The notes under the pieces are model-generated. The model saw only the letters and a program-made list of their open reading frames with translations. It ran no database searches and was not told where the DNA came from. A DNA stretch of 64,000 nucleotides, taken from positions 10,682 through 74,681 of the forward strand of contig CAKPAZ010000003.1 of NCBI GenBank assembly GCA_934133195.1, in the 5' to 3' direction. The stretch is from an uncultured Bacilli bacterium (lineage in GTDB: Bacteria; Bacillota_I; Bacilli_A; ML615J-28; CAG-313). Within the stretch, counting starts at the first letter, position 1; each line of letters begins with the position of its first letter. Below, one piece after another: positions 303 through 48,034 of the stretch. The translations under genes were made by a program, and so were the position numbers.

Positions 303-3116
303 TTAACTTATTACTTGTAATTCTTCAATACTTGTAATTACAAAAGTATACTCATTATTGTAAACATTATAAGAAATAACACTAAGTTTAACCTTTTTAC
401 CATTTAAGGCTTCTAAATTCTTATAGTTATAAGCATAGTATTTAGCATTAGTATAGTAATACATTGTTGCTTCATGTTCACCATCAGTAATATAAACTTT
501 ACTTTCAGAAACATAAATAGTTACAACAATATCTTTCCAGCCTACAGCACCTAGTTTTGCGGCTTCACCGGCAGCATTTGCATCGGACAAATCTTTTACA
601 GTTGCATTTTCTTTAAAAGCTCCATCAGGAAGAGGATTACCACTTGAAATAATCTCTATTGTTGCACCTTTAGCAATTTGTGGCATGCCATAGTATAAAT
701 CAAGGGAACCAGTAACTGTTACTTTATCTCCAACTACAACAGTAGATGGTTCTTTAACGAAGATGATTCCACTTTCATCAGCAAGATAGAATCCCCAAGT
801 ACTTGCCCCTTCACTTCTAGTGATTCCAACCACAATTCCTTCAAGAGATACGGTTTCTCCATTTTTCTTAGCTTTATCACGTGCATCAGCAACCGTCATA
901 CTTTCAAGTTTAGTAACTTTAAAAGTAACATTAATAATTGTTTCTGATTTATCTGTTTTATAAGAAAGGGTTAAAGTTACATCCATAGATACAACGGGTT
1001 CAGGAATTGAAACTGTAAATGTATGAGCTTCTTTACTGATAGTAACACCATCTAAAGTTGATGATTTAATTTCTACATTACCTTGTTCTAACTCAAATGA
1101 TACTTCACTTGCTTTAGTGTATTCTTTACTGAAAGCTGAAGTAATAATATTCTTGGCTTGATAGTTTAATACACTATATGGTGTATCAATAACGCTTAAT
1201 ACTTCTAGTACCGCAGATTTCCAAACAAACTTTTTACTAGATACAGCTCCAATACGTAAAGTTACATAAGCTTCAACACATTTATTAACATAATCATCTA
1301 ACCAACTATATTCAGGTACACCATTTGAACCTGAATTTTGTGAATAAACAATCATAGATAGAGATGGATCATCAAGATCATGAATGTAGTAATTCTTGTA
1401 TGAACCATTGGATTTTTCTAAATAAAGTCTTGTTTTATAAACAATATTAGTAATATTATTATTTGATGGATTTTGAATTAAATCTTTTAAATCTTTACTT
1501 TCAACATATGAACTTGGAATTTCATGTTCTTGATAATCATGATATAATACTTCAGCGTTATTTAATCTAATGGAACCATTATGATTATTATCAAGACGTG
1601 GTTGATACAAATCATAACTACCAGTTACATAAACAAACTCACCCTTAGAAAGCTTTGTAATGTCAGTAACACGGTCAACAGCTGTAGAAATGAAAACGGC
1701 GATTGAACCAGTTTCATCGATAAGTTCAAATCCAGCAGGAGTTTTAGAACCTGATAAATATAAGAAACCAACAATGATTCCTTTAATAGTAACAACATCA
1801 CCTTTTTCCTTTTCTCTCGCATCACAAATATCAATTGTTTCAATTTCTGGTATTTCTTCAACACAATCAAATTCTACAACTTCACTTAATACTACTTCAT
1901 TGTATGTAATAGTAACTTTGATGGAAGCCTTTTGTAATGTAGGAGTACAAGTAATATTAAGAGTATTACCATCAAGAGCAATTGGACCAGATATTACTTC
2001 ATAAGTAACGGAAGAAGTAGTAAGAATTTCATCTTTAGTAAGTAATTCTAAACGACAACTTGCTGAATAAGTAGAACTAAATTCTCTTAATACACGTTTT
2101 AAAGCATAAGCAGTTAATTCTTGATCAGTAACAGTAACTTCCTCATGAATTTCAAGAGGAACAATTCTCCAAAATGAACCACTAGCACTGATTTTACAGT
2201 TTTGTACGGCGATCATACATTTTCTAGTTTGTCCATCATATTTTTCAAGCCAACTTAAATCCTTTCCATTAGCTGTAGTGTAAGCATAGAAAGAATTAAT
2301 ACCATTTAAATCATTAAAGTAATAATTAACAAAACCATTTCCAGGTACTTTCTTGATTGTTGCAGTTACTTCATAAACATTAGAAGTAATGTTTTCAGAC
2401 ACACTTGTTAAAGCTAACTCTTCGATTGATGATTGTTTAACCCCACTTGTAGGTAGAGCATTACCACTAGTGATAACTTCAACACTGCTTGCGACAATTT
2501 GACGAGCTCCAGTATATCCAACTATTTCTGCTGCTGACTTTGATGCTTCATCAATATACATAGTGTAAGTACCTTTTACGATTACTTCTTCACCAAACAT
2601 TACAGTTTCAGCGTCACTACTTGAATAAATGTAGATGGCATCAGTTTTATCAAATACATAAAAACCAACGGGAACATTCTTTTCTGTACCATTAATAATT
2701 CTTGAAACAATACCACGGATTGTTACTTCGGTATCTTTTTCTAAAGTTTTTACTTTTGAAATACTCATATATGAAGGAGCCGGTAAAGAAGCAATGGTAA
2801 TTGTATATTCTTTAGTCTTCTTATAACCATCAAGTTCAAAAGTAACTGTTAAAGTAACACTCTTACTAGTCTCACCAAGAGTTACCTTTCCTTCATTTGT
2901 TAAGGCATCTTCATCAGATGATTGGTAAGTAAGCTTAACGCCACTTATAGTTGTAACAAAATTTAAGTCAGTTGAAACATTGCTGAGATCAGTATCTTGA
3001 AATAATTGATTAATTACTTCATCAACTTGTTTAATCTTAGCATCATCTGGATTCTTACAAGATACAAAAGCAAAACATGTAACTAGTAAGAAAAGAAATG
3101 TTAAAAATTTTTTCAT
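303..3116 (-). CDS. Large surface lipoprotein with three OB-fold-like modules alternating with Ig-like modules; no catalytic domain recognised
   Basis: 937-aa ORF with RBS GGAGAAAAAAACATG and lipobox signal MKKFLTFLFLLVTCFAFVSC. Three similar segments fit the OB-fold pattern of extracellular nuclease/YhcR-type proteins (e.g. EVTIRGIVSRI..VGFYVFDKTDAIYIYS, VVTIKGIIVGF..AGFELIDETGSIAVFIS, TVSLEGIVVGI..WGFYLADESGIIFV). Confidence 0.8.
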   Translation of the reverse strand: MKKFLTFLFLLVTCFAFVSCKNPDDAKIKQVDEVINQLFQDTDLSNVSTDLNFVTTISGVKLTYQSSDEDALTNEGKVTLGETSKSVTLTVTFELDGYKKTKEYTITIASLPAPSYMSISKVKTLEKDTEVTIRGIVSRIINGTEKNVPVGFYVFDKTDAIYIYSSSDAETVMFGEEVIVKGTYTMYIDEASKSAAEIVGYTGARQIVASSVEVITSGNALPTSGVKQSSIEELALTSVSENITSNVYEVTATIKKVPGNGFVNYYFNDLNGINSFYAYTTANGKDLSWLEKYDGQTRKCMIAVQNCKISASGSFWRIVPLEIHEEVTVTDQELTAYALKRVLREFSSTYSASCRLELLTKDEILTTSSVTYEVISGPIALDGNTLNITCTPTLQKASIKVTITYNEVVLSEVVEFDCVEEIPEIETIDICDAREKEKGDVVTIKGIIVGFLYLSGSKTPAGFELIDETGSIAVFISTAVDRVTDITKLSKGEFVYVTGSYDLYQPRLDNNHNGSIRLNNAEVLYHDYQEHEIPSSYVESKDLKDLIQNPSNNNITNIVYKTRLYLEKSNGSYKNYYIHDLDDPSLSMIVYSQNSGSNGVPEYSWLDDYVNKCVEAYVTLRIGAVSSKKFVWKSAVLEVLSVIDTPYSVLNYQAKNIITSAFSKEYTKASEVSFELEQGNVEIKSSTLDGVTISKEAHTFTVSIPEPVVSMDVTLTLSYKTDKSETIINVTFKVTKLESMTVADARDKAKKNGETVSLEGIVVGITRSEGASTWGFYLADESGIIFVKEPSTVVVGDKVTVTGSLDLYYGMPQIAKGATIEIISSGNPLPDGAFKENATVKDLSDANAAGEAAKLGAVGWKDIVVTIYVSESKVYITDGEHEATMYYYTNAKYYAYNYKNLEALNGKKVKLSVISYNVYNNEYTFVITSIEELQVIS

Positions 3117-3249: not shown

Positions 3250-3278
3250 TTGAAAAATATTTATGAAAACGTTATAAT
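3250..3278 (+). promoter_or_regulatory. Sigma-A type promoter of the 3303 gene
   Basis: TTGAAA (3250-3255), 17-nt spacer, TATAAT (3273-3278); RBS AAGGAAGG lies before the ATG at 3303. Confidence 0.6.
3263..3277. promoter_or_regulatory. cre-like (CcpA operator-like) motif overlapping the -10
   Basis: ATGAAAACGTTATAA has one mismatch to WTGNAANCGNWNNCW. A weaker copy lies at 3209-3223 (two mismatches). Confidence 0.3.
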
Positions 3279-3302: not shown

Positions 3303-6300
3303 ATGAAAAACATCAAAACTTTTACAAAATACTTAAGCTTATTCTTGTTTATTATGACCCTTTGTTTAATAACTAGTTGTAAAAAACATGAAGATGAAAA
3401 TCCGATTGATCCCGATGATGAAATCGAAGAAATTACATTTGTACTTCCATCAACCTTAAAAGTACATGAAACTCACAAGATTGTTGGGATTGAATCTGAT
3501 TATGAAGTAAAATCAACAAATGATGAAATCATCAAAGTACATGATGACTATACTTTAGAAGCCTTAGGCGTAGGTAAAGCTATCATTACAATCACATACG
3601 TAAAAAATCAAGAAGTATCAAAAAAATATACTATTGAAGTTCTTGATGAATTAAGCGTTGGACTCCCTGATAAAATAAATCAATATGCTTTATTTGAACC
3701 ACTTGTAACCTCACTTGCTGAAGGTGAACTTAAAGACTATGCTCTTAAGTCAAGTGATGAAAGCATCTTAAAAGTTGTAAATGGAAAACTAGAAGCTCTT
3801 CAAGCTGGTAAATCAACCATTACAGTTACTCGTGGTGATTTTACATATTCAAAAGAAATTGAAGTAGAATATGATGAAGATGCTATGAAAGTAGATCTAC
3901 CTGAAACTCTTGCATGCTACAATATGGTTGAAGTTCTTGTGTATATTGAAAATAGAGGCTATGTAAAAGATTTTACAGTAACTTCATCTAATACAAGATC
4001 AATCAAATATAATGCTGGTTACTTAAATAGCTATCGTGTAGGTGAATCTACCATTGAAATTACTTATGGTACAATTACTAAAAAATATACCATCAATGTT
4101 ATAAATGAATTATATTTAGAAGTACCTGAAGAAATCCGTGTATTTGATAAAGTTGATATTAAATATAGTAATGCAATGAAGAAAAATATGAGTGACGCAG
4201 TAATTACATCAAGTAATCCTGAAATCTTAAATATCATTGATAAAAACCAAATTGAAGGTCTTGCTCCAGGAACTGTTACTATAATTTTAGAGTTTGATGG
4301 TATGAAAATATCAAAAGAAGTAAAAGTTACAACAGGATATAAGTATGAATACAAAAATGCTTTACTTCCAGCCCAAGAAACTATCATGAAAGTAATCGAT
4401 TACTTGAATAATGAAGTTACTAACTTTACTTTATCAACAACAAATAATGATATTATCAAAATTGAAAACAATAAAATCACTGCTTTAAAAGAAGGTACTG
4501 CAACTCTAACTATTGAAATTGGTGAATTTAAAGATGAACTTGAAATCATGGTTATCGGTATGGAAGTTTCAGCCGCATCAACAATGAAACGTGGTGGAAT
4601 TCAAGATTTAAGTATTAACTTTACACCTAATACTTACAGTGAAGGATATACTTTAGAAAGTAGTAACCCTGAAATCATTGAAGTAGTAGAAAAAAATCGT
4701 ATTCGTGCCTTAAAACCAGGTAGTGCAGATATCGTTGTTGTATCAGTAAGTGGTTTAAGAGAAACCTTAACAATCACTGTAGAAGATGTTTACTACTCAA
4801 TTACATTTAATATCACTGATGAAGAAAAAGCCTTACTTCCTGAAGGCTATCTTGAAAATCATCAAAAATTCTCTGTTGATGATCTTCCAATTGCCCTTCC
4901 TAATATGGAAAAAGAGATGAGTTCTTTCTTAGGTTGGAAAATCAACAACAATAGTCAAGACTATGATTTAGAAGATTTAACTTTTGAAATCCCTGTTGGT
5001 ACTAACTACAATGTAACTTTAACATCTGTATGGGGTAACTCTCATATTGAGTTATATCATGAAAATGTTCAAGTAATTGAACCAGAACAAACCTTAAAAC
5101 TTCTTGTTAAAACCTTCATGATTCCAAAAGGCATTGATGTAAATAACCTTGTTTGGGAATCAGCTAATGAAAAGATTGCAATCGTAAAAGATGGTATTGT
5201 AACTGGCGTTAGCGATGGTACCGTTTTAATTAAAGTAAGTCTAAAAGAAAAACCAAATATTAACACAACAATAGGAGTAACAATTATGAGTAACATGAAG
5301 GAAATGGATGAATTATTAAATTACTTTGTTGAAAATGCTATTGATGAAGTAATCGCCAAGAACATTACAGTAACAGGATATCAATTTATCTATCAACATC
5401 GTTTACTTGGTAGTGTTACAAAATACTTATTTACTCCATTTGTGGTAAATAATGATTTCTATCCAATTCCATCATCTAATGCCAACCGTCCAGGAGTTGT
5501 TTATCCTAAGTATTACATTACTGTTCATGATACAGCCTCAGCTGCGGAAACTGCCGATGGAAAAGCTCATGCAAGATACGTTACAGAAGGTGGCGGCGGA
5601 ACTTCATGGCATTATTCAGTTGGTAATGATGGTATTTATCATCAAATTCCTGATAATGAAAATGCATATCATGCAGGTGATGGTGGAAGACCATACATTC
5701 TATATGAAACTGGTGTAAAAGCAGAAGACACAACTAAACTTCCTGTAGTTACTATCAGTGAAGATGGCTACTATGAAATCAATGGAACTAAGACTAAAGT
5801 ATTAGCACCAACTAATGATGGTAAAATTCTAACAACTAAAGATATCAATGATGTTGGTATTCGTACAGTAGTTCAAAATGGTTACTACTATATTGGTAAT
5901 ACTTATTACAATACAACATATCATAAAATATCTAATGCTGGTGGAAACAATAACTCAATCGGTATGGAAACAATGGTAAATAAAGGTTCTGACTTATACT
6001 TAACTTGGCATAATACTGCAAAACTTGTAGCTAACTTAATGTATCAAAACAATTTAGGTATTAACGATGTTCGTCCTCACCATTTCTTTAGTGGTAAGAA
6101 CTGCCCTCAAACAATGCGTGATAACGGTTTATGGGATAACTTTATTACAATGGTTCAATTTGAATATGATGTTTTAACTAAATATAAAGATTATGAAATT
6201 ACTTTTGAATCTCATGATTTAGAATATGTAAATAATGTTGGTCGTGTAATTAAACAAGATAAATACACAAAAACTGTTACTTACACCATTACAGTAACTA

Positions 6301-6374
6301 AGAATGGAGTATCAAAATCAGTAACATTATCATCTAATATTCCAGGTAGTTTAGACCTAAAAGACATCATGTAA
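3303..6374 (+). CDS. Surface lipoprotein: Big_2 Ig-like repeats, one Listeria-Bacteroides (Flg_new) repeat, C-terminal Amidase_2 (N-acetylmuramoyl-L-alanine amidase) domain
   Basis: 1023-aa ORF with lipobox LCLITSC. It has repeated SSN/STN..I..V......ALxxGxxTITV Big_2-like units and a FLGWKINN Flg_new-like unit. Amidase_2 motifs are ITVHDTAS, WHYSVG, AYHAGDG, NSIGMET and PHHFFSGKNCPQ. Confidence 0.85.
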   Translation: MKNIKTFTKYLSLFLFIMTLCLITSCKKHEDENPIDPDDEIEEITFVLPSTLKVHETHKIVGIESDYEVKSTNDEIIKVHDDYTLEALGVGKAIITITYVKNQEVSKKYTIEVLDELSVGLPDKINQYALFEPLVTSLAEGELKDYALKSSDESILKVVNGKLEALQAGKSTITVTRGDFTYSKEIEVEYDEDAMKVDLPETLACYNMVEVLVYIENRGYVKDFTVTSSNTRSIKYNAGYLNSYRVGESTIEITYGTITKKYTINVINELYLEVPEEIRVFDKVDIKYSNAMKKNMSDAVITSSNPEILNIIDKNQIEGLAPGTVTIILEFDGMKISKEVKVTTGYKYEYKNALLPAQETIMKVIDYLNNEVTNFTLSTTNNDIIKIENNKITALKEGTATLTIEIGEFKDELEIMVIGMEVSAASTMKRGGIQDLSINFTPNTYSEGYTLESSNPEIIEVVEKNRIRALKPGSADIVVVSVSGLRETLTITVEDVYYSITFNITDEEKALLPEGYLENHQKFSVDDLPIALPNMEKEMSSFLGWKINNNSQDYDLEDLTFEIPVGTNYNVTLTSVWGNSHIELYHENVQVIEPEQTLKLLVKTFMIPKGIDVNNLVWESANEKIAIVKDGIVTGVSDGTVLIKVSLKEKPNINTTIGVTIMSNMKEMDELLNYFVENAIDEVIAKNITVTGYQFIYQHRLLGSVTKYLFTPFVVNNDFYPIPSSNANRPGVVYPKYYITVHDTASAAETADGKAHARYVTEGGGGTSWHYSVGNDGIYHQIPDNENAYHAGDGGRPYILYETGVKAEDTTKLPVVTISEDGYYEINGTKTKVLAPTNDGKILTTKDINDVGIRTVVQNGYYYIGNTYYNTTYHKISNAGGNNNSIGMETMVNKGSDLYLTWHNTAKLVANLMYQNNLGINDVRPHHFFSGKNCPQTMRDNGLWDNFITMVQFEYDVLTKYKDYEITFESHDLEYVNNVGRVIKQDKYTKTVTYTITVTKNGVSKSVTLSSNIPGSLDLKDIM
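5511..6110 (+). other. Amidase_2 catalytic module (domain of the 3303..6374 protein) with about 85-aa insertion
   Basis: His (ITVHDT), His-x7-Lys-x-Cys (HHFFSGKNCP) and NSIGxE motifs are present. About 85 aa (about 5688-5945) separate HAGDG from NSIG. Confidence 0.75.
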
Positions 6375-6385
6375 AATAAAAATAT

Positions 6386-6429
6386 AGACTTTTTCAAAAC
6401 CTTAGGCTTTTGGGAAAGTCTTTTTTTTA
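6386..6429 (+). terminator. Rho-independent terminator
   Basis: Outer stem AGACTTT (6386-6392) / AAAGTCT (6415-6421) with an inner imperfect stem, followed by a T8 run. Confidence 0.7.
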
Positions 6430-6437
6430 AAAAAAGT

Positions 6438-6452
6438 ATGAAAACGCTTGCT
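6438..6452. promoter_or_regulatory. cre-like (CcpA operator-like) motif overlapping the -35 of the 6513 gene
   Basis: ATGAAAACGCTTGCT matches every defined position of WTGNAANCGNWNNCW. Confidence 0.4.
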
Positions 6453-6476
6453 AAAAAATGTTAAAAGTGCTATAAT
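6448..6476 (+). promoter_or_regulatory. Sigma-A type promoter of the 6513 gene
   Basis: TTGCTA (6448-6453), 17-nt spacer, TATAAT (6471-6476) with an upstream TG; RBS AAAGGAGAAAAATATG. Confidence 0.65.
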
Positions 6477-6512
6477 AAGGTGTAAAAATAATGAAAGGAA
6501 AAGGAGAAAAAT

Positions 6513-9500
6513 ATGCTAAACTTTAGAAAAAGAATTTTCTTATTTTTAACACTCATTATGACTGCTTTATGTTTAGTAAGTTGTACAGATGTAAAAAATA
6601 CAGTTCGTATTAATTTCGAAGAAGATGAATACACTGTAAGAATGCAATCTACTTTAACAGTTAAACCAGTCATTAAAGCTTCTGCCGATTTCGACATGAA
6701 TGGATTTGAAGTAGTTTATGAATCTTCAAATGAAGATGTTGTACGTTACGTTAATGGTATTTTATATCCTGTTAGCGAAGGCGAAGCACAAATTAAAGCT
6801 TATTGGAAGGATAAAGATGTAATCTTTGATAAGGCTACAGTTAAAGTTATTAAACCTGCTTTACCAGAATTACTAGTTGAAGATCCTATCAATGTATTGA
6901 AAAACGATGAGGTTCTACTACCTTACACTTTATATAAAAACTACACTGATGCTAAAGCAACATTCAAAGCTTTAACACCTGAAATCGCAACAATCGATGA
7001 AACAGGTAGAGTTAAAGCTCTTAAAGTTGGTCAAGCTCTATTTGAAGCAGTAGTTAGTGACTACGCAGAAACAAGTGAAGTTTATACAATAAAAGTTAAC
7101 GTTGTTGAATCTGACTTCTCTATCAAGTATGTTCTTGATGGTGGTGTAAATGCTGAAACTAACCCTGTTGGTTACAACACTTTAGATTGCCCTATTGAAC
7201 TTGCTCCTGCAACAAAAGAAGGTTATGACTTTGTTGGTTGGAATTTAGATGGTCAAATCGTTAATGAAATTCCTGCTAATACTACAGGTGATCTTGTACT
7301 TGTAGCAGTATGGAAAGCTATTGAATACAAACTTGAATTTGACGTTGATGGTGGTGTATTTGAAGGTGACCTACCTACATCTTATACTGCTGATTTACTA
7401 CCTCTTGCTCTTCCAACTTTAACAAAAGAAGGATATGAATTCCAAGGTTGGAAACTTGACAAAGCTGTAGTTACTGAAATTAAAGAAGGTACTACTGGTG
7501 ATTTAACACTTAAAGCTGTATGGAAAGCTCTTGAATGGAATGTTTCATTCGATCTTGATGGTGGTGAATTCCCTGGTACATATGCAACAAGAGAAGAAAT
7601 GGTAAATGACTTTATGAAAGACTTTGGTGCTTTCGCAAAGATCGACATGACTACTCCTGCTCAATACTGGGCTCAAGATCCTGCTAGAACAAACTTCTGG
7701 AAAGATGCAAAAATGCATGCTAAATGGTCTTGGATCTTCAAAGCATTAATTCCTTTTGCAAAAGCTCAAGGTATTGATACTAAGTATTTAGCTGGTATGA
7801 ATGCAGACCCTATCTCAATCATAACATATGCAACTCAAAACGTAGCTATCTACTTATTAGGTATTAACAATGCTAAATGGAATGAAACTTATAAAGCAAC
7901 ATATGGTGGCTTAGCAAGTAAATGGACTACAGTTGACTGTACAAGTGAAGCTGTATTAAATAGTTGGGTTCAATATGTTGGTGTTAAGACAACTCGTAAC
8001 ACTGATGAAGAATTCGTTCTTCCTACACCTGCTAAACCTGGTTATGATTTCGCTGGTTGGTTCGATGCTGAAGATAATAAAGTTGAAACAGTTGCTGCTG
8101 GTACATTAACTGATGTTGCTGTAAAAGCTAAATGGACTCTTGCAAACTACAATATCAACTTTGATTATGCTGGTGGTACACTTGTTGGTAAATATGCAAC
8201 AAGAGAAGACCTGGTAAATGACTTTATGAAAGACTTTGGTGCTTTCGCAAAGATTACTATGACTACACCTGCTGAATACTGGGCTTCTGATTATAAGACA
8301 AGTTTCTGGAGAGATGCAAAGATGTATGCTAAATGGTCTTGGATCTTTAAAGCATTAGTTCCACTTGCTAAATCTCAATATCAAGAAACAACATACTTAG
8401 ATAATATGCTTGCAGATCCTATCTCAATTTCTGGATATGCAACTCAAAACGTAGCTATCTACTTATTAGGTATTAACAATGCTAAATGGAATGAAACTTA
8501 TGCTTCAACATATAAAGGTTTATCTAGTAGATTTACTACTGTTGATTGTACAAGTGAAAAAGCATTAAATAGCTGGATTGAATATGTTGGTGTTAAATCT
8601 ACATATACAATCTTTGATGAAGTTACACTTCCAACTCTAACAAAAGAAGGTTATACATTTGTTGGTTGGTTCAATGGTGACCAAAAGGTTGAAAAAATTG
8701 CTGCTGGTACATATGGAGAATTAAATTTAGTTGCTAAATTTGAAGGCAATAAATATGAAATTGAATATGTATTAGAAGAAGGTGCAACACTTCCTGAAGG
8801 TGCTGCAAAAGAATATGTATTTGGTACTGGACTTGCTACACTTCCTGTTCCAACAAAAGAAGGTTATGATTTCTTAGGTTGGTATGAAGGTGAAACTAAA
8901 GTTGAAACTATCGCAGCTGATAGAACTGGTAAAGTTACTTTAACTGCAAAATTTGAAAAGAAAGCCGAAGTTACTGAATATGAAATTACTTATAATCTAG
9001 ACGGTGGAACTCTTCCTGAAGATGCTCCTACTAAATACACAAAAGGCGTTGGTCTTGCATCACTTGTAACTCCAACAAAAGAAGGTTACACATTCTTAGG
9101 ATGGTACTTAAATGGTGAATTAGTAACTGCTATTAGTGCTTCTCAAGAAGGTAACATTACTCTTGAAGCTAGATGGGAAGAAATCGTTCAAGAAGAAGAA
9201 TATGAAATTACTTATGACTTAGATGGTGGTTCTTGGCCAGTAACTAAGATTGAATCATATGAAGACTTTGCTGCTGCATTCGCTGCTGCATATTCTGAAT
9301 ATGTTGGTAAAGAAGTTACTCCTGAAACTTTCATGGATGTATCTTTCAACTATGGTAATTTAGATGATTTCTTCGACAATGCTAAATACTCTGCTGATTG
9401 GGCATGGGTTAGAACATTTGTTGTTGAATATTGTAACAAAACTGATAACCAATATAAATCAAATATTGCTGATAAGACTGCTGATTATCATAACACAATC

Positions 9501-12500
9501 TTAAGAGCAAACGTTCACGGATTTATTAATCAAGCACAATGGTCAAAATGGCCTGCAAGTGCTAACTATTCAAGTGTTAAATTTGAAGACTTCCAAGACA
9601 AAGTTCCTGGTGGAAAAACTATCGCTGGTCCTGATAAATATGTAAATACTAAAGGTGCTACATTAGTTACTCCTGTTAAAGAAGGATTCGACTTTGCAGG
9701 TTGGATTTGTGGTGATGAAATTATTACTGAAATCGCTGCTGGTACAACTGGTAACTTAACACTTAAAGCTAAATGGCGTGCATCTTCAGGTGAACAAGGC
9801 GTTATCCTTGTAGGTCCTGAAAGAGCATACAAGACAATTGATGAAGCTATGGCAGTTGCAATGCCTGGTGATGTAATCAAACTAGATGCTGGAACTTATG
9901 AAGGCGGAACAATCACTGTTGCTAATGTAAAATTAGTTGGTCCTAATGCTGGTATCAACCCTGTTAACACTACAAGAAGTGCAGAAGCTATCATTACTGG
10001 TGATATCACTGTTGCTGCAAACTATGTAACAATCGATGGTATTAGATTAACTGGTAAAGCTCGTATTGTTGGTTCTGCTAACGGTATTGAAGATTTAACA
10101 ATTACTAATGTTCACATTTTTGAATGTGCTCTTAATGAAACTTCTGCAGACTCATCAAATGCTCCTTTCTACTTCTATACTTCACAAGAAAATGCTGAAT
10201 TTAAGAATATTGTTATTACAAACTGCTTAAATTCTGATACTAAAGAAGGAAGAGGCATGATCCTTTATGGTGCTCATATCAATGGCTTAACTATGAAAGA
10301 TAACAAATTCGTAGGTAAGAGAATTAACTATAACGATGGTATTAAAATCGACAGTAATGCTGGCTGGGGTATCAAAGGTAAAGTTGAAATCGTAAGTAAC
10401 CATTTCGAAAACTACGCTCAATATGTAATTTGGGTACGTCTATATGGCGATGGTGAATATGATATTCAAAACAACGTATTTATTAACAATGGTCAAACTG
10501 CTGGAAGCCATGCTGCTATATCATTTATTACATATAAAGGTGATGGTGGAAAAGTTAGTATTAACTTTATGTACAATACAGTTGACAACTCTTACATGGC
10601 TGCAAGAATTGACAAGGCTGATCGTACAGCTGAAAATTTAATCGTACATATTAACTATAATAAGATTAAAAATTGTAAAGCTTCATACTACGTAAAGAAT
10701 GCCAATGCTTTCAACGTAGATGCTGCAAACAACTATTATGACAAAACTCCAGTTGCTCAAATGTTTAGTGGTGCTGTTTGGGAACCTTACTACACTGATG
10801 AAGATAAAGTTCCTCTATGGGGTCAACCTTTAACATTCAAAGCAATTAATTATGAACTTGACGGTGGTGAATTAGATGAAGCTGCTCCTAGATCATTTGA
10901 TTCTACAACAGGTCTTTCTGTTCTTCCAATTCCAACAAAACGTAATCGTATTTTCGTTGGTTGGTTAATGAATGGTGAATTCGTAACTAGCATTCCTGCT
11001 GGTACTGATACTGCTGTTACATTAACAGCTGTATGGCGTGAAGACGCTATCTATGTAAGTAAGAATGGTGAAAGCTATGCTGTTGCAACTTTAGCAGAAG
11101 CTATCGCAAAAGCAAAAGCTGGCGACAAGATTATCGTTCTTGCTGGTGTATATGAAGAAAACATCACAATTAGTGTTGCTAACTTAACTCTTGTTGGTGT
11201 TAACCAAGGTATCAACCCTAACACTGGAACAAGAGGTGCTGAAGCAATCATTAAAGGTGTTATTACAATTACTGCAAGTGCTACTGACCTTACAATTGAT
11301 GGTTTAGCATTTACTGGTAATGCAAAAGTTAAAAACGCTTCTAATAATGATACAATTAGTGGATTAACATTCCAAAACAACGTTGTATATGATATGGAAG
11401 CTACAACTGCTTGGATTTTAAATAGATATCAAATGGATGCCTTCTTAGAAATCAAAGTTTCTGGTGGATCATCTAATAATATCGGTGTTTATAACAACAA
11501 GTTTACAAACGTTGGTAATGTTAACGTTCTAGTAAACAGAGTTGAAAACTTAAGTGTTGATGGTAACGTATTTAAAGACTTCGGTCGTGATGCCATTCGT
11601 TCTGAAGGTGGTTACTCTTATGGAATCTTAGCATTCACAAACAACCATTTCGAACAAACAACTGCTGGTCATGGTTATGCTGGTATCTTCACATATTCAA
11701 TCGCTGGTGGAGCTGGCACTAACGCTAAAGCCGTAGTTAGAGGTAACACATTTGTTAAAGTTGGTTCAAATGATACTTCAATTGCTCCATACAATGGTGC
11801 ATTAATATCACACGTATACCAAGAAAATCAATTAGCATGGATCGTTGAAGATAACGTATTTGATCATTGTTCAAATATTATGTGGCTTCGTAACAATGGT
11901 GCTAAAGAATCTACTTGGTCTTGTACAGTTCAAAATAACCAATTCTTAGGTATTCCTCAAACTTATTACTTTGGAACATATCGTGGTACTGATACTGCAT
12001 CTACAAATCCACATCTTGCTGTATTTGGTGCTAACTACTATGAAGATAATGATGGTAATGTAATTACTGACTTAACTCAATATGCTGATATGTTTAAACA
12101 CTTAAAGACTTATGGAACAGCTCTAGCTACAAAACCTGGTGAAGCAACAGTTGAAGCATATGAATTCTGGAGAATTTCATATGACCTAGATGGCGGTACT
12201 GCAAAAGGTCTTGTAACTCATTACAATAGAGAAACTGGCGCTATTAAACTTCCTACTCCTACATGGAATATTTACCATGAATTTAAAGGATGGACATTAG
12301 ATGGCGTTACAATCACAGAAATTCCTGAAGGAACAAAAGGAGACTTACACATCGTGGCTGTTTGGGAAGAAATCGAAGGTAACCCTGTTACAATTGAATT
12401 TGAATTAAACGGTGGTAACTGGAACTATTCATCATTTGATGAAATTAGTTTAGATTTATTAAAAGATTACAACACTTATGGTGGAACAAACTATACACAA

Positions 12501-14651
12501 GACAATGTACCATCAGGTGCATGGGAAAACATCAACGTTCATACATTCTTCTATAGTGAAGGTATGTCTGAAAAATGGGGATGGCTTGCTGAATGGCTTG
12601 GTCAAGTAGGTGGAACTCCTAACAAAGCTGCATGTACAGCTCTTACAACAAAAGCAACAGTTGAAGAATTCAATGCTGCTAATGGAAACTACAAATATGC
12701 TGTATCTTATGAATTTAGAGCATTCATGAAGGGTAGTTCAGTTACATCTAATGGTAACTATAAGACTAGTGATTATAGTGACCCACAATTAAGAGAACAA
12801 GTTTGGGAACCATATAATGCAACTGTAAAAACAACTCTTGATACTACAGAAGGTAAGATTCTTACTCTTCCAACTCCTAAGAAACCTTTCTTAACATTCG
12901 TTGGATGGTATGACAATGCTGAATTTACAGGTGATCCTGTTACAACTATTACTGTAGGTGCAACAAATCCTAAATATTATGCTAAGTTTATCGACCCTAA
13001 TCCTGTAACTGGTATTAATATTCTTAATGGTATAACTGAAACTAAACGTTTCACTGAATTACAATTACAATGGGAAGTATTACCTGGTAATGCAACAAAT
13101 AGAGATGTTAAATTCCTTGTTAGTGATTCTAAGATTGCTACTGTAACATCTGAAGGTTTAATCAACTTCTTAGTTGCTGGTACAGTTACAATTAAAGTTG
13201 TTTCTAGCTCAAATCCAAGTATTTATGCAGAAATGACAGTTAATGTATATGTTCCTCAACATATCGAAGGTTCATTCAAGACTAACTCATATGTAGTTTT
13301 AGGTCAAACTATTGAACTACTTGCTGAAGTTATGAATGGTGAAGGCCAAATCGAATGGACAAGTAAAGATGAATCAATCGCAACAGTAAATAATGGTATC
13401 GTTACTCCAGTTAAAGCTGGTACAGTAACTATCGTTGCATCCCTTGTTGGTGCTCCAGAAGTTAAACTTGAATATGTAGTTGTTGTTCTTGAAGAAATGC
13501 CTGAAGGTGTTCTTGAATACTTATTAAGACAAAATAATAGTAATATCTTCTTAAGATCTGAACTTGGTATCGGTGCTGGTAACTATGCTTATTATTCAGA
13601 CATCTTAAGTAGTGTATCTAAATTATTATTCGTTGACTATATAGTTGATAAAACATACTATCAAGAAACTCCTACTCGTAATAATCATGGTGGCGTAAGA
13701 ACTGGTGCGTTAGAATTTATCACTGTTCACTACACTGGTAATATGGCTGCAGGTTCATATGCATCAAGTAATGCTAACTACTTCACTAACTTATCAACTG
13801 ATTCTTCAATTCACTATGTAACTGGTAATGAAGGTATCTATGCTTGTTATGATGAAAAATATGTAACATGGCATGCTGGTGATGGTACTGATACTCCATT
13901 TGAATGGTATCCAACAGGTGTATTAGTAAAAGAAGATGATCCAACTCGTCCAGTTGTAACTATTACAGCTAACTCTAAGTTTGCGATCAATGGTACTGAG
14001 TCAATCGTTCAATGTCCTAGTGGTAAGTCACGTGTTTGGGATCCAGTTACTAAGAAAATGGTAGATGGTCCTGAAGTTATTCCAACTGATAGTAAATATC
14101 TTACTGATTTAGGTCCAGCTGTTAAAGTTGTTGATGGTCAATACTACATTGGTAGAACATGGTGGTGTACTAGTCAAGTTGCTGAAGGACGCGTATGTTC
14201 TTTAGGTGGTAACTTAAATAGTATCGGTATTGAAACTGCATGTAACGAAGGTTCTGACCTATGGTTAACATGGCAAAAGACTGCACAACTAGTTGCTGAC
14301 TTAATGATTAGATATAACCTTGACATCGAAAGAGTTAAAGGTCATAACTTCTACTCAGCAAAAGATTGTCCTCAACCAATGCTTGAAAATGAAGATGAAA
14401 TTTGGTGGGAATTTATCGATCTTTGTAAGGCAGAATATGAAGCAATGTCTACTTATAAAGGCTGGAAGTTCACAATGGTATCAAATAATCCTGATATCGT
14501 TGATAACACTGGTCGTGTAATCAATCAACCTGAATATGACACATGTGTTACATACACTGTAACTTGTGTTAACGGTGAAGAAACTAAGACTATCACTCTT
14601 TCTTCAATGGTTCCTGGTTATTACAGAAATCTTGCACGTGGTGAAAGATAG
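6513..14651 (+). CDS. Giant (2712 aa) multidomain surface lipoprotein: Big_2, many Flg_new repeats, four copies of an unknown helical insert domain, two right-handed beta-helix modules, Big_2 pair, C-terminal Amidase_2
   Basis: Uninterrupted ORF with lipobox LCLVSC. It has repeated EGY(D/T/E)F(V/L/A)GW...G(D/N)LTL.A.W Flg_new units. Beta-helix signatures include ITNVHIFEC, IVITNCLNS, VEIVSNHFENY and YDIQNNVFINNG. C-terminal amidase motifs are ITVHYTGN, IHYVTG, TWHAGDG, NSIGIET and GHNFYSAKDCPQ. Confidence 0.85.
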   Translation: MLNFRKRIFLFLTLIMTALCLVSCTDVKNTVRINFEEDEYTVRMQSTLTVKPVIKASADFDMNGFEVVYESSNEDVVRYVNGILYPVSEGEAQIKAYWKDKDVIFDKATVKVIKPALPELLVEDPINVLKNDEVLLPYTLYKNYTDAKATFKALTPEIATIDETGRVKALKVGQALFEAVVSDYAETSEVYTIKVNVVESDFSIKYVLDGGVNAETNPVGYNTLDCPIELAPATKEGYDFVGWNLDGQIVNEIPANTTGDLVLVAVWKAIEYKLEFDVDGGVFEGDLPTSYTADLLPLALPTLTKEGYEFQGWKLDKAVVTEIKEGTTGDLTLKAVWKALEWNVSFDLDGGEFPGTYATREEMVNDFMKDFGAFAKIDMTTPAQYWAQDPARTNFWKDAKMHAKWSWIFKALIPFAKAQGIDTKYLAGMNADPISIITYATQNVAIYLLGINNAKWNETYKATYGGLASKWTTVDCTSEAVLNSWVQYVGVKTTRNTDEEFVLPTPAKPGYDFAGWFDAEDNKVETVAAGTLTDVAVKAKWTLANYNINFDYAGGTLVGKYATREDLVNDFMKDFGAFAKITMTTPAEYWASDYKTSFWRDAKMYAKWSWIFKALVPLAKSQYQETTYLDNMLADPISISGYATQNVAIYLLGINNAKWNETYASTYKGLSSRFTTVDCTSEKALNSWIEYVGVKSTYTIFDEVTLPTLTKEGYTFVGWFNGDQKVEKIAAGTYGELNLVAKFEGNKYEIEYVLEEGATLPEGAAKEYVFGTGLATLPVPTKEGYDFLGWYEGETKVETIAADRTGKVTLTAKFEKKAEVTEYEITYNLDGGTLPEDAPTKYTKGVGLASLVTPTKEGYTFLGWYLNGELVTAISASQEGNITLEARWEEIVQEEEYEITYDLDGGSWPVTKIESYEDFAAAFAAAYSEYVGKEVTPETFMDVSFNYGNLDDFFDNAKYSADWAWVRTFVVEYCNKTDNQYKSNIADKTADYHNTILRANVHGFINQAQWSKWPASANYSSVKFEDFQDKVPGGKTIAGPDKYVNTKGATLVTPVKEGFDFAGWICGDEIITEIAAGTTGNLTLKAKWRASSGEQGVILVGPERAYKTIDEAMAVAMPGDVIKLDAGTYEGGTITVANVKLVGPNAGINPVNTTRSAEAIITGDITVAANYVTIDGIRLTGKARIVGSANGIEDLTITNVHIFECALNETSADSSNAPFYFYTSQENAEFKNIVITNCLNSDTKEGRGMILYGAHINGLTMKDNKFVGKRINYNDGIKIDSNAGWGIKGKVEIVSNHFENYAQYVIWVRLYGDGEYDIQNNVFINNGQTAGSHAAISFITYKGDGGKVSINFMYNTVDNSYMAARIDKADRTAENLIVHINYNKIKNCKASYYVKNANAFNVDAANNYYDKTPVAQMFSGAVWEPYYTDEDKVPLWGQPLTFKAINYELDGGELDEAAPRSFDSTTGLSVLPIPTKRNRIFVGWLMNGEFVTSIPAGTDTAVTLTAVWREDAIYVSKNGESYAVATLAEAIAKAKAGDKIIVLAGVYEENITISVANLTLVGVNQGINPNTGTRGAEAIIKGVITITASATDLTIDGLAFTGNAKVKNASNNDTISGLTFQNNVVYDMEATTAWILNRYQMDAFLEIKVSGGSSNNIGVYNNKFTNVGNVNVLVNRVENLSVDGNVFKDFGRDAIRSEGGYSYGILAFTNNHFEQTTAGHGYAGIFTYSIAGGAGTNAKAVVRGNTFVKVGSNDTSIAPYNGALISHVYQENQLAWIVEDNVFDHCSNIMWLRNNGAKESTWSCTVQNNQFLGIPQTYYFGTYRGTDTASTNPHLAVFGANYYEDNDGNVITDLTQYADMFKHLKTYGTALATKPGEATVEAYEFWRISYDLDGGTAKGLVTHYNRETGAIKLPTPTWNIYHEFKGWTLDGVTITEIPEGTKGDLHIVAVWEEIEGNPVTIEFELNGGNWNYSSFDEISLDLLKDYNTYGGTNYTQDNVPSGAWENINVHTFFYSEGMSEKWGWLAEWLGQVGGTPNKAACTALTTKATVEEFNAANGNYKYAVSYEFRAFMKGSSVTSNGNYKTSDYSDPQLREQVWEPYNATVKTTLDTTEGKILTLPTPKKPFLTFVGWYDNAEFTGDPVTTITVGATNPKYYAKFIDPNPVTGINILNGITETKRFTELQLQWEVLPGNATNRDVKFLVSDSKIATVTSEGLINFLVAGTVTIKVVSSSNPSIYAEMTVNVYVPQHIEGSFKTNSYVVLGQTIELLAEVMNGEGQIEWTSKDESIATVNNGIVTPVKAGTVTIVASLVGAPEVKLEYVVVVLEEMPEGVLEYLLRQNNSNIFLRSELGIGAGNYAYYSDILSSVSKLLFVDYIVDKTYYQETPTRNNHGGVRTGALEFITVHYTGNMAAGSYASSNANYFTNLSTDSSIHYVTGNEGIYACYDEKYVTWHAGDGTDTPFEWYPTGVLVKEDDPTRPVVTITANSKFAINGTESIVQCPSGKSRVWDPVTKKMVDGPEVIPTDSKYLTDLGPAVKVVDGQYYIGRTWWCTSQVAEGRVCSLGGNLNSIGIETACNEGSDLWLTWQKTAQLVADLMIRYNLDIERVKGHNFYSAKDCPQPMLENEDEIWWEFIDLCKAEYEAMSTYKGWKFTMVSNNPDIVDNTGRVINQPEYDTCVTYTVTCVNGEETKTITLSSMVPGYYRNLARGER
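7534..8757 (+). repeat. Internal tandem duplication, 2 x 612 bp (204 aa), inside the 6513 gene
   Basis: TATGCAACAAGAGAAGA at 7581 recurs at 8193 (offset 612). The encoded YATRE(E/D)(M/L)VNDFMKDFGAFAKI.MTTPA.YWA...NVAIYLLGINNAKWNETY... is near-identical in both copies. Confidence 0.85.
13716..14375 (+). other. Amidase_2 catalytic module (domain of the 6513..14651 protein) with about 107-aa insertion
   Basis: Same motif set as 5511-6110; the insertion (about 13889-14210) lies between HAGDG and NSIGIE. Confidence 0.75.
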
Positions 14652-16120: not shown

Positions 16121-17331
16121 TTAAAAAACTAAGATTTAAAATTATTATTGTTATGATGATTGCGGTGGTGGTTGTTTTATCAGTAATTATTGGTGGTATT
16201 AACATCAAAAACTATCATGATTTAACGAAAAGAGCTGACAGTACATTAGAAATCTTAAAGATTAATGATGGTAAGTTTCCTCAAAAACCAATACCTGGCA
16301 GTAATAATCCTTTTGAAATGTCACCAGAACTCCCATTTGAAAGTAGATTCTTTACCATAACCTACAATGAATCAAAGGAAGTATTAGAAGTAAACATTGA
16401 TAAAGTTGCTTCCATTAATAAAGATGAAGCCATCACATATGGTAATAAAGCCATCAAAAATAAAAAAACTAAAGGATTCATGGATTCTTATCGTTTTCTT
16501 GTTGTTGAAAAAGAAAATCAAACATCAATGGTAATTTTCTTAGATTGTAACCGAGAATTAGATAGTTTTAGTAAAGTTCTTAATACGAGTATTATAATTA
16601 GTATTATTGGTGTTTGTGTAGTTTTTGTCTTAGTCTTAATCTTTTCAAAAATTGTGACTAAGCCAGTTGTTCAAACCTACCAAAAACAAAAAAGCTTTAT
16701 AACTGATGCTTCTCATGAACTTAAGACACCACTTACGATCATCAACGCAAGTTGTGAAATTCTTGAATATAACAATGAAGATAATGAATGGATTAAAACC
16801 ATCAAAGATCAAACTAAACGTTTAACCGATCTTACCAATAAACTTGTCTTTTTATCCAAAATGGATGAAGAGTCAAAAAAAGTTATGATGACAGACTTTA
16901 GCTTAAGTGAAGTAATGAATGAAGTAATTACTACCTACCTACCATTATCCGTAACAACCAATAAAAAAATCATCTACAACATTTTACCAAATGTCTCAAT
17001 GACAGGTGATTTAGGGATGATCAAGGAAATGTTAAATCTTCTCATTGATAACGCCTTTAAATATTCAAGTAGTAATAGTGATATTGAAATTAACTTAAAA
17101 ACCCAAGGAAAGTCAAAAATAATTACCATGTCTAACCTTGGAGAAAACCTACCAAGCGGTGATTTAAAGGTTTTATTTGATCGTTTCTATCGTTTAGATT
17201 CATCACGTAATAGTGAAACTGGTGGCCATGGAATTGGACTTTCAGTTGTAAAAGCAATCGTCGAACTTCACAAAGGAAAAATAACTGTCTTCTCAGATAC
17301 TAAAAAGATAACTTTTACCATTATCTTTTAA
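16117..17331 (+). CDS. Sensor histidine kinase (two TM helices, about 125-aa extracytoplasmic loop)
   Basis: ATGA overlap with the response regulator gene. H-box ASHELKTPLT, N-box LIDNAFKYS, DRFYRLD and GGHGIGLSVV are present. Confidence 0.9.
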   Translation: MIKKLRFKIIIVMMIAVVVVLSVIIGGINIKNYHDLTKRADSTLEILKINDGKFPQKPIPGSNNPFEMSPELPFESRFFTITYNESKEVLEVNIDKVASINKDEAITYGNKAIKNKKTKGFMDSYRFLVVEKENQTSMVIFLDCNRELDSFSKVLNTSIIISIIGVCVVFVLVLIFSKIVTKPVVQTYQKQKSFITDASHELKTPLTIINASCEILEYNNEDNEWIKTIKDQTKRLTDLTNKLVFLSKMDEESKKVMMTDFSLSEVMNEVITTYLPLSVTTNKKIIYNILPNVSMTGDLGMIKEMLNLLIDNAFKYSSSNSDIEINLKTQGKSKIITMSNLGENLPSGDLKVLFDRFYRLDSSRNSETGGHGIGLSVVKAIVELHKGKITVFSDTKKITFTIIF

Positions 17332-32386: not shown

Positions 32387-32938
32387 ATGGTTATTGAAAA
32401 AGTAGTTGATAAAGATGAAATGATAAGAGATATAAAATTATTTAAAAGATATTGTCTTTTACCATTTAAAAGGGGATTATTAGTATTTCCAATTAGTTTA
32501 GTTGTAGCATTTCTTCTTCTTCTTTTTGGATATATCATTGACTCTAGTTCACCTATAGATTATATTGTTATTGGAATAGCATTACTATATTTTGTTCTTG
32601 CGGCAGCTCGTGTTCTAATAAAATCCAATAAAGAAATTAAGAAACTAATAAATGATAGAACGAAAATCTACAATACCAGAGATTATATTATTAGAAAATT
32701 TACTTTTAATAATAATCAATTAGTTATTGAAGGAAACGATGGAACTAATCAAGTAACTGAGACATTTTCATTGGATGATCTTTATGTAGCATGGATTGAT
32801 AAAAAAAGAACAGCTTTTATTCTTCAATTTAAAGCAGGAAAAAACAAAAAGATAGTTGCAGCTCATTCAGATAAAATAGATGAATTAGAAGCATATTTTA
32901 TAAATAATAATATAAGGTATCATATAGTAAAAAAATAA
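32387..32938 (+). CDS. YcxB-like membrane protein (paralogue 1)
   Basis: 183-aa ORF with RBS AAGAGGATAAATTTATG. Two central TM helices are followed by a soluble C-terminal domain. Tandem paralogue of 32994..33554. Confidence 0.6.
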   Translation: MVIEKVVDKDEMIRDIKLFKRYCLLPFKRGLLVFPISLVVAFLLLLFGYIIDSSSPIDYIVIGIALLYFVLAAARVLIKSNKEIKKLINDRTKIYNTRDYIIRKFTFNNNQLVIEGNDGTNQVTETFSLDDLYVAWIDKKRTAFILQFKAGKNKKIVAAHSDKIDELEAYFINNNIRYHIVKK

Positions 32939-32993: not shown

Positions 32994-33554
32994 ATGATTA
33001 TTGAAAAAGTAGTTGATAAAAATGAAATGATAAGAGACTTAAAATTATTTAAGAAATATTATCTTTTACCATTTAAAACTCAATCATTGATATTTCTATT
33101 TCTTATTATTTATGGTGCCATTAATTTTCTTTTTGCATATTTATTTTCAATTGAATCAAAGTTTGTAGATATAAGTATGATTATTGTTGCACTAGCAGTA
33201 CTATATTATTTAATTATAGCGGCTCGTACTTTGATAAAAACCAATAAAGATATTAAGATGCTAATAAATGATAGAACGAAAATCTACGATACTAGAGATT
33301 ATATTATTAGAAGATTTACCTTTACTGCTGATGAATTAATTATTGAAAAAGATGATGGAACTAATCAAGTAACTGATAAGTTTTTATTAGATGATCTTTA
33401 TATAGTATGGATTGATAAAAAAAGAAAAGCTTTTATCATGCAATTTAAAACTGGTAAAAATAAAAGGATACTAGCAGTTTATTCAGATAAAATAGATGAA
33501 TTAGAAACATATTTCATAAATAATAATATAAGGTATCATATAGTAAAAAGATAA
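32994..33554 (+). CDS. YcxB-like membrane protein (paralogue 2)
   Basis: 186-aa ORF with RBS AAAGGAGAAAATATTTTATG. N- and C-terminal thirds are near-identical to the upstream gene (MIIEKVVDKNEMIRD..., ...YFINNNIRYHIVK). Confidence 0.6.
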   Translation: MIIEKVVDKNEMIRDLKLFKKYYLLPFKTQSLIFLFLIIYGAINFLFAYLFSIESKFVDISMIIVALAVLYYLIIAARTLIKTNKDIKMLINDRTKIYDTRDYIIRRFTFTADELIIEKDDGTNQVTDKFLLDDLYIVWIDKKRKAFIMQFKTGKNKRILAVYSDKIDELETYFINNNIRYHIVKR

Positions 33555-48009: not shown

Positions 48010-48034
48010 AAGAAAAGAGCCCTTTGAAGGCTCT
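48010..48034 (-). terminator. Terminator of the 48033..48593 gene
   Basis: On the minus strand AGAGCC-TTCAAAG-GGCTCT followed by TTTTC; the stop codon lies inside the stem. Confidence 0.65.

Follow-up and report, generated by a model that had tools for sequence, protein, structure and literature searches.

What would an intact peptidoglycan amidase do at the outer end of a giant lipoprotein, and on whose peptidoglycan would it act, when no large surface protein encoded nearby carries a wall-binding domain? The question is raised by two tandem genes in a stretch of 64,000 nucleotides from an uncultured Bacilli bacterium (contig CAKPAZ010000003.1 of assembly GCA_934133195.1, positions 10,682 to 74,681 of the forward strand), hereafter called the window. 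The encoded lipoproteins of 1023 and 2712 amino acids (aa), designated P1 and P2, had been described in an earlier note made from the sequence alone as membrane-held amidases of a cell resembling the wall-less Mollicutes. Both open reading frames (ORFs) and both lipoboxes were confirmed, and the wall-less host was not supported. With a probability of about 0.55, P1 and P2 are active lipid-anchored, stalked amidases of a thin-walled host, standing in for missing wall-binding autolysins. The coordinates of all features are collected in Table 1.

Both proteins end in a module of about 360 aa in which Pfam detects Amidase_2 (PF01510) at 44.2 bits in P1 and 57.8 bits in P2, with a gathering cutoff of 26. 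The two modules share 38% identity over 346 aa (E 5e-71), in agreement with their earlier description as paralogues. Their catalytic and zinc residues are intact, as had been reported, with H742 and Y771 lying in the N-terminal half of the P1 core and E889, H926, K932, and C934 in its C-terminal half; the corresponding residues of P2 are H2406, Y2435, E2574, H2611, K2617, and C2619. The spacing of the zinc-site motif is His-x5-Lys-x-Cys, as in the endolysin XlyA (PH-KYWSG-K-E-C), and not His-x7-Lys-x-Cys as the earlier note had it. In an alignment of 83 sequences, the invariant module positions are H78, T80, S104, Y107, H126-A-G-D129, G217, G223, E225, H262, K268, C270, and P271, and the H, Y, HAGD, E, H, K, and C are also invariant among 33 long family members. 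On the evidence of these residues and of the fold model described below, P1 and P2 are predicted to be catalytically competent zinc N-acetylmuramoyl-L-alanine amidases.

A PDB sequence search with the P1 module returned XlyA (3rdr/3hmb) as the top match (E 1e-27), followed by PlyL and PlyG. The match falls into two pieces, module residues 53-131 and 214-287, which shows that an additional segment between HAGDG and GGNxNSIG(M/I)E breaks up the Amidase_2 fold. The earlier note gave a layout of leader, amidase, and terminal domain; this insertion of 80 to 100 aa, which splits the core, had been overlooked. It is absent from XlyA, from PlyL, and from the phage amidases found, and its conserved positions (P150, I154, Y160, P172, N185, Y198, G201, and T203 in module numbering) include several that are at least 90% conserved. 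Neither the leader nor the insertion matched anything in the Pfam and PDB sequence searches. Inside the insertion, family members P0005 and P0006 carry a zinc-ribbon-like CxxC...CxxC sub-insertion.

The AlphaFold2 (AF2) model of the whole 359-aa P1 module, built from the family alignment, has a predicted local distance difference test score (pLDDT) of 95.9 and a predicted TM score (pTM) of 0.94. A single rigid body is predicted, made up of the leader (a helix and a beta-hairpin), the core with its beta-rich insertion, a long connecting helix, and a small terminal beta domain. Foldseek comparison with the PDB placed the module core on XlyA 3rdr with a TM score of 0.93 and a root mean square deviation of 1.4 A, and solved structures cover at most about 40% of the model. 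The motif quoted earlier for a shared terminal immunoglobulin (Ig)-like domain is visible in the alignment of P1 and P2, but the Ig-likeness is weak: Pfam aBig_2 matches at E 0.003-0.009, below threshold, and the last ~54 residues match Ig-like accessory domains of glycosidases (Foldseek, E ~4e-3). To judge from the sequence position of the insertion, the family-specific additions may lie next to the part of the fold that makes up the substrate groove of XlyA and PlyL.

At the other end of each protein, a K/R-rich n-region and a hydrophobic core precede the lipobox, which is LITSC with Cys26 in P1 (MKNIKTFTKYLSLFLFIMTLCLITS-C26) and LVSC with Cys24 in P2 (MLNFRKRIFLFLTLIMTALCLVS-C24). Both fit the lipoprotein pattern of a basic n-region, a hydrophobic h-region, and a lipobox [LVI][ASTVI][GAS]C. 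Lipoboxes occur in 9 of the 39 ORFs in the window. Pfam and sequence reading revealed no LPXTG near the C terminus and no LysM, SH3, SLH, or CW_binding domain in any large protein of the window; the large surface proteins are lipid or transmembrane anchored, as had been observed before. P1 and P2 are predicted to be anchored by lipid only.

In the domain maps, long Ig-like/Flg_new stalks separate the amidase modules from the N-terminal anchors, which also bears out the earlier description. In addition to its amidase module, P2 contains two Ig-like domains, 11 Flg_new repeats, two beta-helix modules, and two Big_2 domains (Pfam and repeat hidden Markov model [HMM]). Four copies of an unannotated domain of about 150 aa, which has no Pfam or PDB sequence match, alternate with the Flg_new repeats, and the same domain occurs in the P2 orthologues of two related metagenome-assembled genomes (MAGs), L005 and L006. 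The beta-helix regions likewise had no match in Pfam and PDB sequence searches, and beta-helix 1 has a single homologue among 5.8 billion proteins. Built from an alignment of three sequences, the AF2 model of beta-helix 1 reaches moderate confidence (pLDDT 77.6, pTM 0.83), and its Foldseek matches are exclusively right-handed parallel beta-helix enzymes and adhesins (TM score 0.45-0.53, E>=5e-4), including PL6 alginate lyases, RbmB, GH87, polygalacturonases, pectate lyase, and PfbA. The model and these matches thus support a beta-helix fold for module 1; of the two beta-helix modules claimed earlier, module 2 rests on its identity to module 1.

The module belongs to a large family. Used as a query, it retrieved 767 proteins at E<=1e-3, and most of the best matches are stand-alone proteins of 350-390 aa that start exactly at the module leader and have no signal peptide; these starts were confirmed by ORF analysis of two loci (L007 and L008). 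A profile search of 1.84 billion cluster representatives at 50% identity yielded 798 at E<=1e-30. In the best 150 of these 798, the whole module forms one stretch at the extreme C terminus of proteins of 600-4105 aa, and a clear lipobox is present in 103 of the 129 long representatives among the same 150, most of the others being N-terminally truncated. Among 33 long members examined with Pfam, Amidase_2 was found in 33, Big_2 in 32, Flg_new in 17, and Beta_helix in 3, and LysM, SH3, SLH, CW_binding, and PG_binding in none (0/33); the lipobox Cys is invariant in their alignment. P0295 (2525 aa), P0310, P0359 (4105 aa), and P0375 look like P2 orthologues from their N termini and lengths. Nearly all members come from metagenomic sequences of uncultured organisms. 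In phage genomes (50,697 records) and IMG/VR, matches were limited to the plain core, and the full module with leader, insertion, and terminal domain was not found in either collection. A literature search on lipoprotein amidases in Mollicutes and cultured RF39 returned nothing relevant. Because only Amidase_2 is recognized by Pfam, the stand-alone paralogue is without an NCBIfam model, and no structure or paper was found, the rigid leader-core-insertion-Ig module, near-universally C-terminal on stalked lipoproteins in uncultured gut Bacilli, appears to be undescribed.

Comparison with known amidases sets the design apart. P1 and P2 have in common with XlyA, CwlA, PlyL, and PlyG (PDB 3rdr, 3hmb, 1yb0, and 2l47) the fold, the His/His/Cys zinc site, the Glu, and the Lys-x-Cys, and identity to XlyA-type enzymes reaches ~49% in the N-terminal half of the core. 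However, those enzymes have cores of 150-160 aa followed by wall-binding domains and are phage or prophage encoded, signal-less, and holin dependent, whereas in P1 and P2 the core is split by an insertion of 80-100 aa, preceded by a leader of ~65 aa, followed by a terminal Ig-like domain, and placed at the C terminus of a lipoprotein. Escherichia coli AmiD, an outer-membrane lipoprotein with an Amidase_2 enzyme that acts on peptidoglycan and muropeptides, provides a precedent for lipoprotein amidases; it is a stalkless protein of ~276 aa on the periplasmic side of the outer membrane, with a C-terminal PG_binding domain. AmiD was not among the PDB sequence or Foldseek matches of the module. Atl AmiA/AmiE and LytA (PDB 4knk, 3lat, and 4x36) have the Amidase_2 fold in common with the module (Foldseek, E 9e-6 to 4e-3), and their wall remodelling from outside is analogous to the role proposed for P1, but they are held on the wall by GW/R or choline-binding repeats, in place of which the P1/P2 family has a lipid anchor and an Ig-like stalk. 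The cytoplasmic anhydro-N-acetylmuramic acid (MurNAc)-peptide amidase AmpD (PDB 2y28) is a distant fold match (E ~4e-3, TMt ~0.53) that has neither the insertion nor the terminal domain; it offers a functional analogy for the signal-less paralogues, for which a recycling role is conjectural.

The genomic setting of the two genes differs from that of an endolysin. The window is 98% identical to contig 4 of the Hadza gut MAG CAKPBI01 ("uncultured Bacilli bacterium"), and the P1/P2 locus lies between the dnaK-dnaJ operon and a two-component system with no phage genes nearby, as the earlier note had remarked. In four further "Bacilli bacterium" MAGs (L003-L006), hrcA-grpE-dnaK-dnaJ is followed by a module-bearing lipoprotein, and these P1 orthologues, directly 3' of dnaJ in four other species, show 45-56% identity to P1. 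Because it is conserved and syntenic next to dnaJ, P1 is taken to be the housekeeping wall-remodelling and cell-separation amidase. In L005 and L006, where the contig is long enough, a second large lipoprotein without the module follows, and then rsmE-mtaB. P2 residues 1-906 are orthologous to this module-less lipoprotein (35-38% identity), and the Big_2 pair and module of P2 are 35% identical to P1 aa 581-1015. Since the identity of this block is only 35%, P2 seems to go back to an older fusion rather than to a recent duplication; it appears to have arisen, specifically in this lineage, when the stalk lipoprotein next door was joined to beta-helix modules and to a diverged amidase module. Between dnaJ and P1, in this species only, lies the gene of a 937-aa lipoprotein (303-3116, minus strand) with weak ExeM/NucH-nuclease, OB-fold, and aBig_2 matches, which is absent from the syntenic L003-L006.

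The stand-alone paralogues occupy other places. In two species such a gene lies in a comEC-holA-rpsT-gpr region. Five stand-alone neighbourhoods were compared; apart from the comEC-holA-gpr region common to two, they all differ, and no transporter or catabolic operon is consistently linked to the family. Recycling, as by AmpD, or lysis of the mother cell, as by CwlH, are possible roles of the signal-less protein. The neighbours of the stand-alone gene in a distant relative (L024 12512-16423) include a PF00144 serine hydrolase at a distance of 1.4 kb and, at 3.4 kb, a double-SIS protein of 610 aa with similarity to MurNAc-6-P etherase (E 9e-34, below cutoff).

Whether the host has a wall decides much of the interpretation. 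The window uses genetic code 11 (93% coding under table 11, with TGA ending 4 of the 39 ORFs). UGA as a tryptophan codon is confined to Mycoplasmatales and Entomoplasmatales, and Acholeplasma-like lineages use code 11, so they are not excluded by it. On contig 2 of CAKPBI01 (L008), the spore germination endopeptidase GPR, a polysaccharide deacetylase of the PdaB/PgdA-like CE4 type, and the signal-less module paralogue all lie within 5 kb. One relative with a stand-alone paralogue in the same comEC-holA-gpr region also has GPR, and in another (L033) a gene for the spore protein SspI (16226-16429) lies near a family member. A thin peptidoglycan wall has been predicted for most RF39, ML615J-28, and part of RFN20, whose common ancestor lost most penicillin-binding proteins (PBPs) and lyt/cwl hydrolases; sortases are missing in RFN20 and ML615J-28; and the peptidoglycan-less families RFN20 CAG-288 and CAG-826 have neither spo0A nor sporulation genes (Field et al. 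2024, PMC10868615). Among RF39 genomes, mraY is present in 87% and murG in 69%, and genomes without UDP-N-acetylglucosamine (UDP-GlcNAc) synthesis have been reported (Wang et al. 2020, PMC7301438). Field et al. further inferred gaps in the precursor pathways of these orders, which would make them dependent on scavenged muropeptides (PMC10868615). Because sortases and wall-binding modules have been lost there, anchoring by lipid or transmembrane segments only is expected of walled members, and such a surface proteome is not diagnostic of wall loss. Most likely the host belongs to the uncultured gut Bacilli orders (RF39, ML615J-28, or RFN20-like), has a thin wall, and has retained spore genes. 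The claim that the anchoring pattern marks a wall-less, Mollicutes-like cell is countered by GPR, the deacetylase, code 11, and the surveys of walled relatives.

From these features we infer a course of events that runs from lipidation and stalk geometry to enzymatic activity and substrate (the own wall or foreign peptidoglycan). After export, lipid modification at Cys26 of P1 and Cys24 of P2 would retain the proteins on the outer face of the cytoplasmic membrane. A semirigid Ig-like/Flg_new stalk, built from ~8 domains in P1 and, in P2, from >20 along with two beta-helices, would carry the C-terminal catalytic module to or past the outer face of the wall. There the XlyA-type core at the stalk end would cut the MurNAc-L-Ala bond by means of the His/His/Cys zinc site and the catalytic Glu, with Lys and Tyr stabilizing the transition state, while the insertion, leader, and terminal Ig-like domain would pack on the core and probably extend the substrate groove. 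Extended, the P1 stalk could span a few tens of nanometres, as estimated from typical Ig-domain dimensions; P2 would project well beyond the wall, and action on external material more plausibly fits it. Since sortases, wall-binding modules, and most lyt/cwl autolysins have been lost in these lineages, lipid anchor and stalk may together be the lineage's replacement for wall-binding autolysins.

Several observations weigh against a thin-walled host that uses both proteins as autolysins. The stalks, that of P2 above all, seem longer than the cell's own thin wall would require, and their diversification, with several paralogues per genome, resembles that of foraging or adhesion proteins more than that of housekeeping autolysins. 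GPR can persist in lineages that have recently lost sporulation, and the link between its contig and that of P1 and P2 rests on MAG binning. No peptidoglycan-synthesis genes were seen in the ~110 kb of the MAG examined, which also favours a wall-less host whose tethered amidases would act only on the peptidoglycan of others, in predation, scavenging, or the release of immune-active fragments. The purely lipid- or transmembrane-anchored large surface proteins of the window, the lipoboxes in 9 of its 39 ORFs, and the prediction that some related families are peptidoglycan free (PMC10868615) agree with such a host. However, the families so predicted have also lost sporulation genes, whereas GPR (338 bits) and the deacetylase occur in the MAG and GPR and SspI in relatives; walled members of these orders have also been reported to be without sortases and wall-binding modules; the window uses code 11; and a very large family with a common signal-less cytoplasmic form is left unexplained by a purely offensive role. 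A wall-less host is thus improbable. More can be said for a walled host whose stalked amidases, mainly P2, strip stem peptides or muropeptides from neighbours or gut debris and so feed a cell with incomplete precursor and amino-acid pathways, the stand-alone paralogue handling imported muropeptides in the cytoplasm like AmpD. The scavenging need inferred by Field et al. (PMC10868615) and the missing UDP-GlcNAc synthesis in genomes of Wang et al. point this way, as do the position of the catalytic module at the distal tip of very long, highly variable stalks, the joining in P2 of an amidase to two modules of polysaccharide-lyase/hydrolase fold, the several paralogues per genome, one form of which is cytoplasmic, the pairing of a GH4 gene with a NagK-like kinase gene in the window, and, as a weak lead, the MurQ-like double-SIS protein and serine hydrolase near one distant stand-alone paralogue. 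But the neighbourhoods of the stand-alone genes reveal no common uptake or catabolic operon, the MurQ-like match is below the curated cutoff and comes from one distant relative only, the P1 orthologue sits in a housekeeping neighbourhood, and an amidase splits the peptide from the glycan, so that intact muropeptides would not be delivered. This account is possible, though on balance doubtful.

Two further explanations concern the module itself. Non-catalytic peptidoglycan recognition proteins (PGRPs) belong to the Amidase_2 superfamily, and the stalk architecture is adhesin-like, so the module might be a PGRP-like lectin or adhesin by which the cell adheres to other bacteria. The Cys ligand is typically lost in non-catalytic PGRPs, whereas the zinc ligands, catalytic Glu, Lys, and Tyr of the module are invariant in both sets of diverse members (83 and 33), which makes a purely binding role very improbable. 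The closest structures and phage matches are endolysins (XlyA, PlyL, PlyG, and the phi105 lysin), as would be expected of a domesticated or remnant prophage lysin. The locus is chromosomal, syntenic in five species, and free of phage genes, a holin partner is missing, the proteins carry signal peptides of the lipoprotein type, and the matches in phage collections and IMG/VR are plain cores that have neither leader, insertion, nor terminal domain. On the last of these grounds a prophage-endolysin origin of P1 and P2 was rejected, and it is scarcely credible. The reading of P1 and P2 as stalked amidases of a thin-walled host is the one retained here.

P1 and P2 are apparently separate transcription units, because each has its own promoter-like site, ribosome-binding site, and terminator-like hairpin. 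The P2 promoter region is kept 5' of the P2 orthologues in L005 and L006. The sequence TATGAAAACGnT occurs only twice in the 64 kb (3262-3273 and 6437-6448), both times at the promoter-like sites of P1 and P2, and the promoters of the P2 orthologues in L005 and L006 retain GAAAAACGCTTGCAAAAG. Regulation through TATGAAAACGnT as a cre-like element was considered and set aside: the resemblance is loose, there is no enrichment of the full cre consensus, and P1 orthologues do not have the motif in their 5' regions; it was not used as evidence. The G+C content of the P2 region (window 8001-14000) is 0.35, compared with 0.25-0.33 across most of the window; the difference may reflect amino-acid composition or a foreign source of the beta-helix region.

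Among the other genes of the window, a giant surface protein of 4134 aa (33760-46164, plus strand) has an N-terminal transmembrane/signal segment, an S8 subtilase domain, 17 BspA-type LRR_5 stretches, LRR_8, one Flg_new, and a C-terminal transmembrane helix with an RRKKY tail, and no LPXTG. The GH4 glycosidase gene is directly followed by the gene of the BadF/NagK-like sugar kinase (50950-53235, plus strand); both matches are below equivalog cutoffs, and the two may form an amino-sugar or glycoside utilization pair. Tandem paralogous membrane proteins of ~185 aa (32387-32938 and 32994-33554, plus strand) have near-identical N termini, MVIEKVVDKDEMIRD and MIIEKVVDKNEMIRD. A 186-aa fragment (48033-48593, minus strand) matches the N-terminal third of ISNCY/IS481-type transposases and is probably an insertion sequence remnant. 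Just past window position 64000 (L031 3-2465) lie the division-cluster genes ylmE, sepF, and ylmH; ftsA and ftsZ are not immediately upstream.

Table 1. Features of the P1/P2 locus and of related loci, with positions in the window unless a locus handle is given
Feature	Position	Strand	Basis or remark
P1 promoter-like site, TTGAAA-17-TATAAT	3250..3278	+	Consensus match only, 11/12 positions
P1 ribosome-binding site, AAGGAAGG, 3' of promoter-like site		+	Read from sequence
P1 ORF, 1023-aa lipoprotein, stalk and C-terminal amidase module	3303..6374	+	ORF call, translation, Pfam
P1 signal peptide and lipobox (ITS-C26)	3303..3380	+	Read from sequence
P1 stalk, ~7 Ig-like (Big_2/HL_N-beta) repeats and 1 Flg_new repeat (aa 498-575)	3381..5294	+	Pfam, iterative repeat HMM
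P1 amidase module, aa 665-1023	5295..6371	+	Pfam, AF2, Foldseek, PDB sequence match
P1 module parts: leader 665-730; core N half 731-795; insertion 796-877; core C half 878-960; terminal Ig-like 961-1023			
P1 family-specific beta-rich insertion within the amidase fold	5688..5933	+	~82 aa
Terminator-like hairpin 3' of P1	6386..6421	+	14-pair stem, then T run
P2 promoter-like site, TTGCTA-17-TGcTATAAT	6448..6476	+	Consensus scan, sequence read
P2 ORF, 2712-aa lipoprotein	6513..14651	+	ORF call, translation, Pfam, repeat HMM
P2 signal peptide and lipobox (LVS-C24)	6513..6584	+	Read from sequence
P2 unannotated domain (130-155 aa), 4 copies, aa 345-478, 549-681, 900-1025, 1962-2098	7545-7946, 8157-8555, 9210-9587, 12396-12806		
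P2 beta-helix module 1, aa 1096-1440	9798..10832	+	AF2, Foldseek
P2 beta-helix module 2, aa 1511-1880	11043..12152	+	31% identical to module 1, shared N/G/F ladder positions
P2 Big_2 pair 5' of amidase module	13002..13451	+	Pfam, repeat HMM
P2 amidase module, aa 2329-2712	13497..14648	+	Pfam, alignment to P1, family alignment, repeat HMM
P2 insertion, ~aa 2460-2562	13890-14198	+	~100 aa
Terminator-like hairpin 3' of P2	14662..14696	+	16-pair stem
CE4 PdaB/PgdA-like polysaccharide deacetylase lipoprotein	L008 7511-8665		E 4e-46, below equivalog cutoff
Signal-less stand-alone paralogue of the whole module	L008 10001-11065 (contig 2 of MAG CAKPBI01)		Also in L007 and L029
GPR spore germination endopeptidase (TIGR01441)	L008 12196-13242 (contig 2 of CAKPBI01)		338 bits, cutoff 120

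In the human gut, RF39-like Bacilli rank among the most prevalent of the uncultured bacteria, and the family described here bears on the question of whether they have a wall and how they would maintain it after losing most classical PBPs, autolysins, and sortases. With ~800 clusters at 50% identity and conserved catalytic residues, it is a strong candidate for the wall hydrolases reported as missing in KEGG-based surveys; alternatively, it is a candidate means of the muropeptide scavenging that surveys predicted. A bolder proposal, which is speculative and rather unlikely, is that genome-reduced, uncultured gut Bacilli (RF39, ML615J-28, or RFN20-like) evolved a large, fast-diversifying arsenal of lipid-tethered, stalked amidases, all constructed on a single rigid, elaborated XlyA-type module, that harvests the stem peptides and muropeptides of neighbours, with the signal-less paralogue finishing the work in the cytoplasm. 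If true, this arsenal would be the missing enzymatic route for the predicted muropeptide dependence of hosts with incomplete precursor pathways, and P2-type proteins with their beta-helices would be multienzyme tools for dismantling the walls of other cells. For biochemistry, the insertion-bearing module offers a tractable target with a confident model. As amidases of a thin-walled host, P1 and its relatives would represent a distinct design of Gram-positive autolysin, in which a C-terminal enzyme on a modular, lipid-anchored stalk takes the place of wall-binding repeats.

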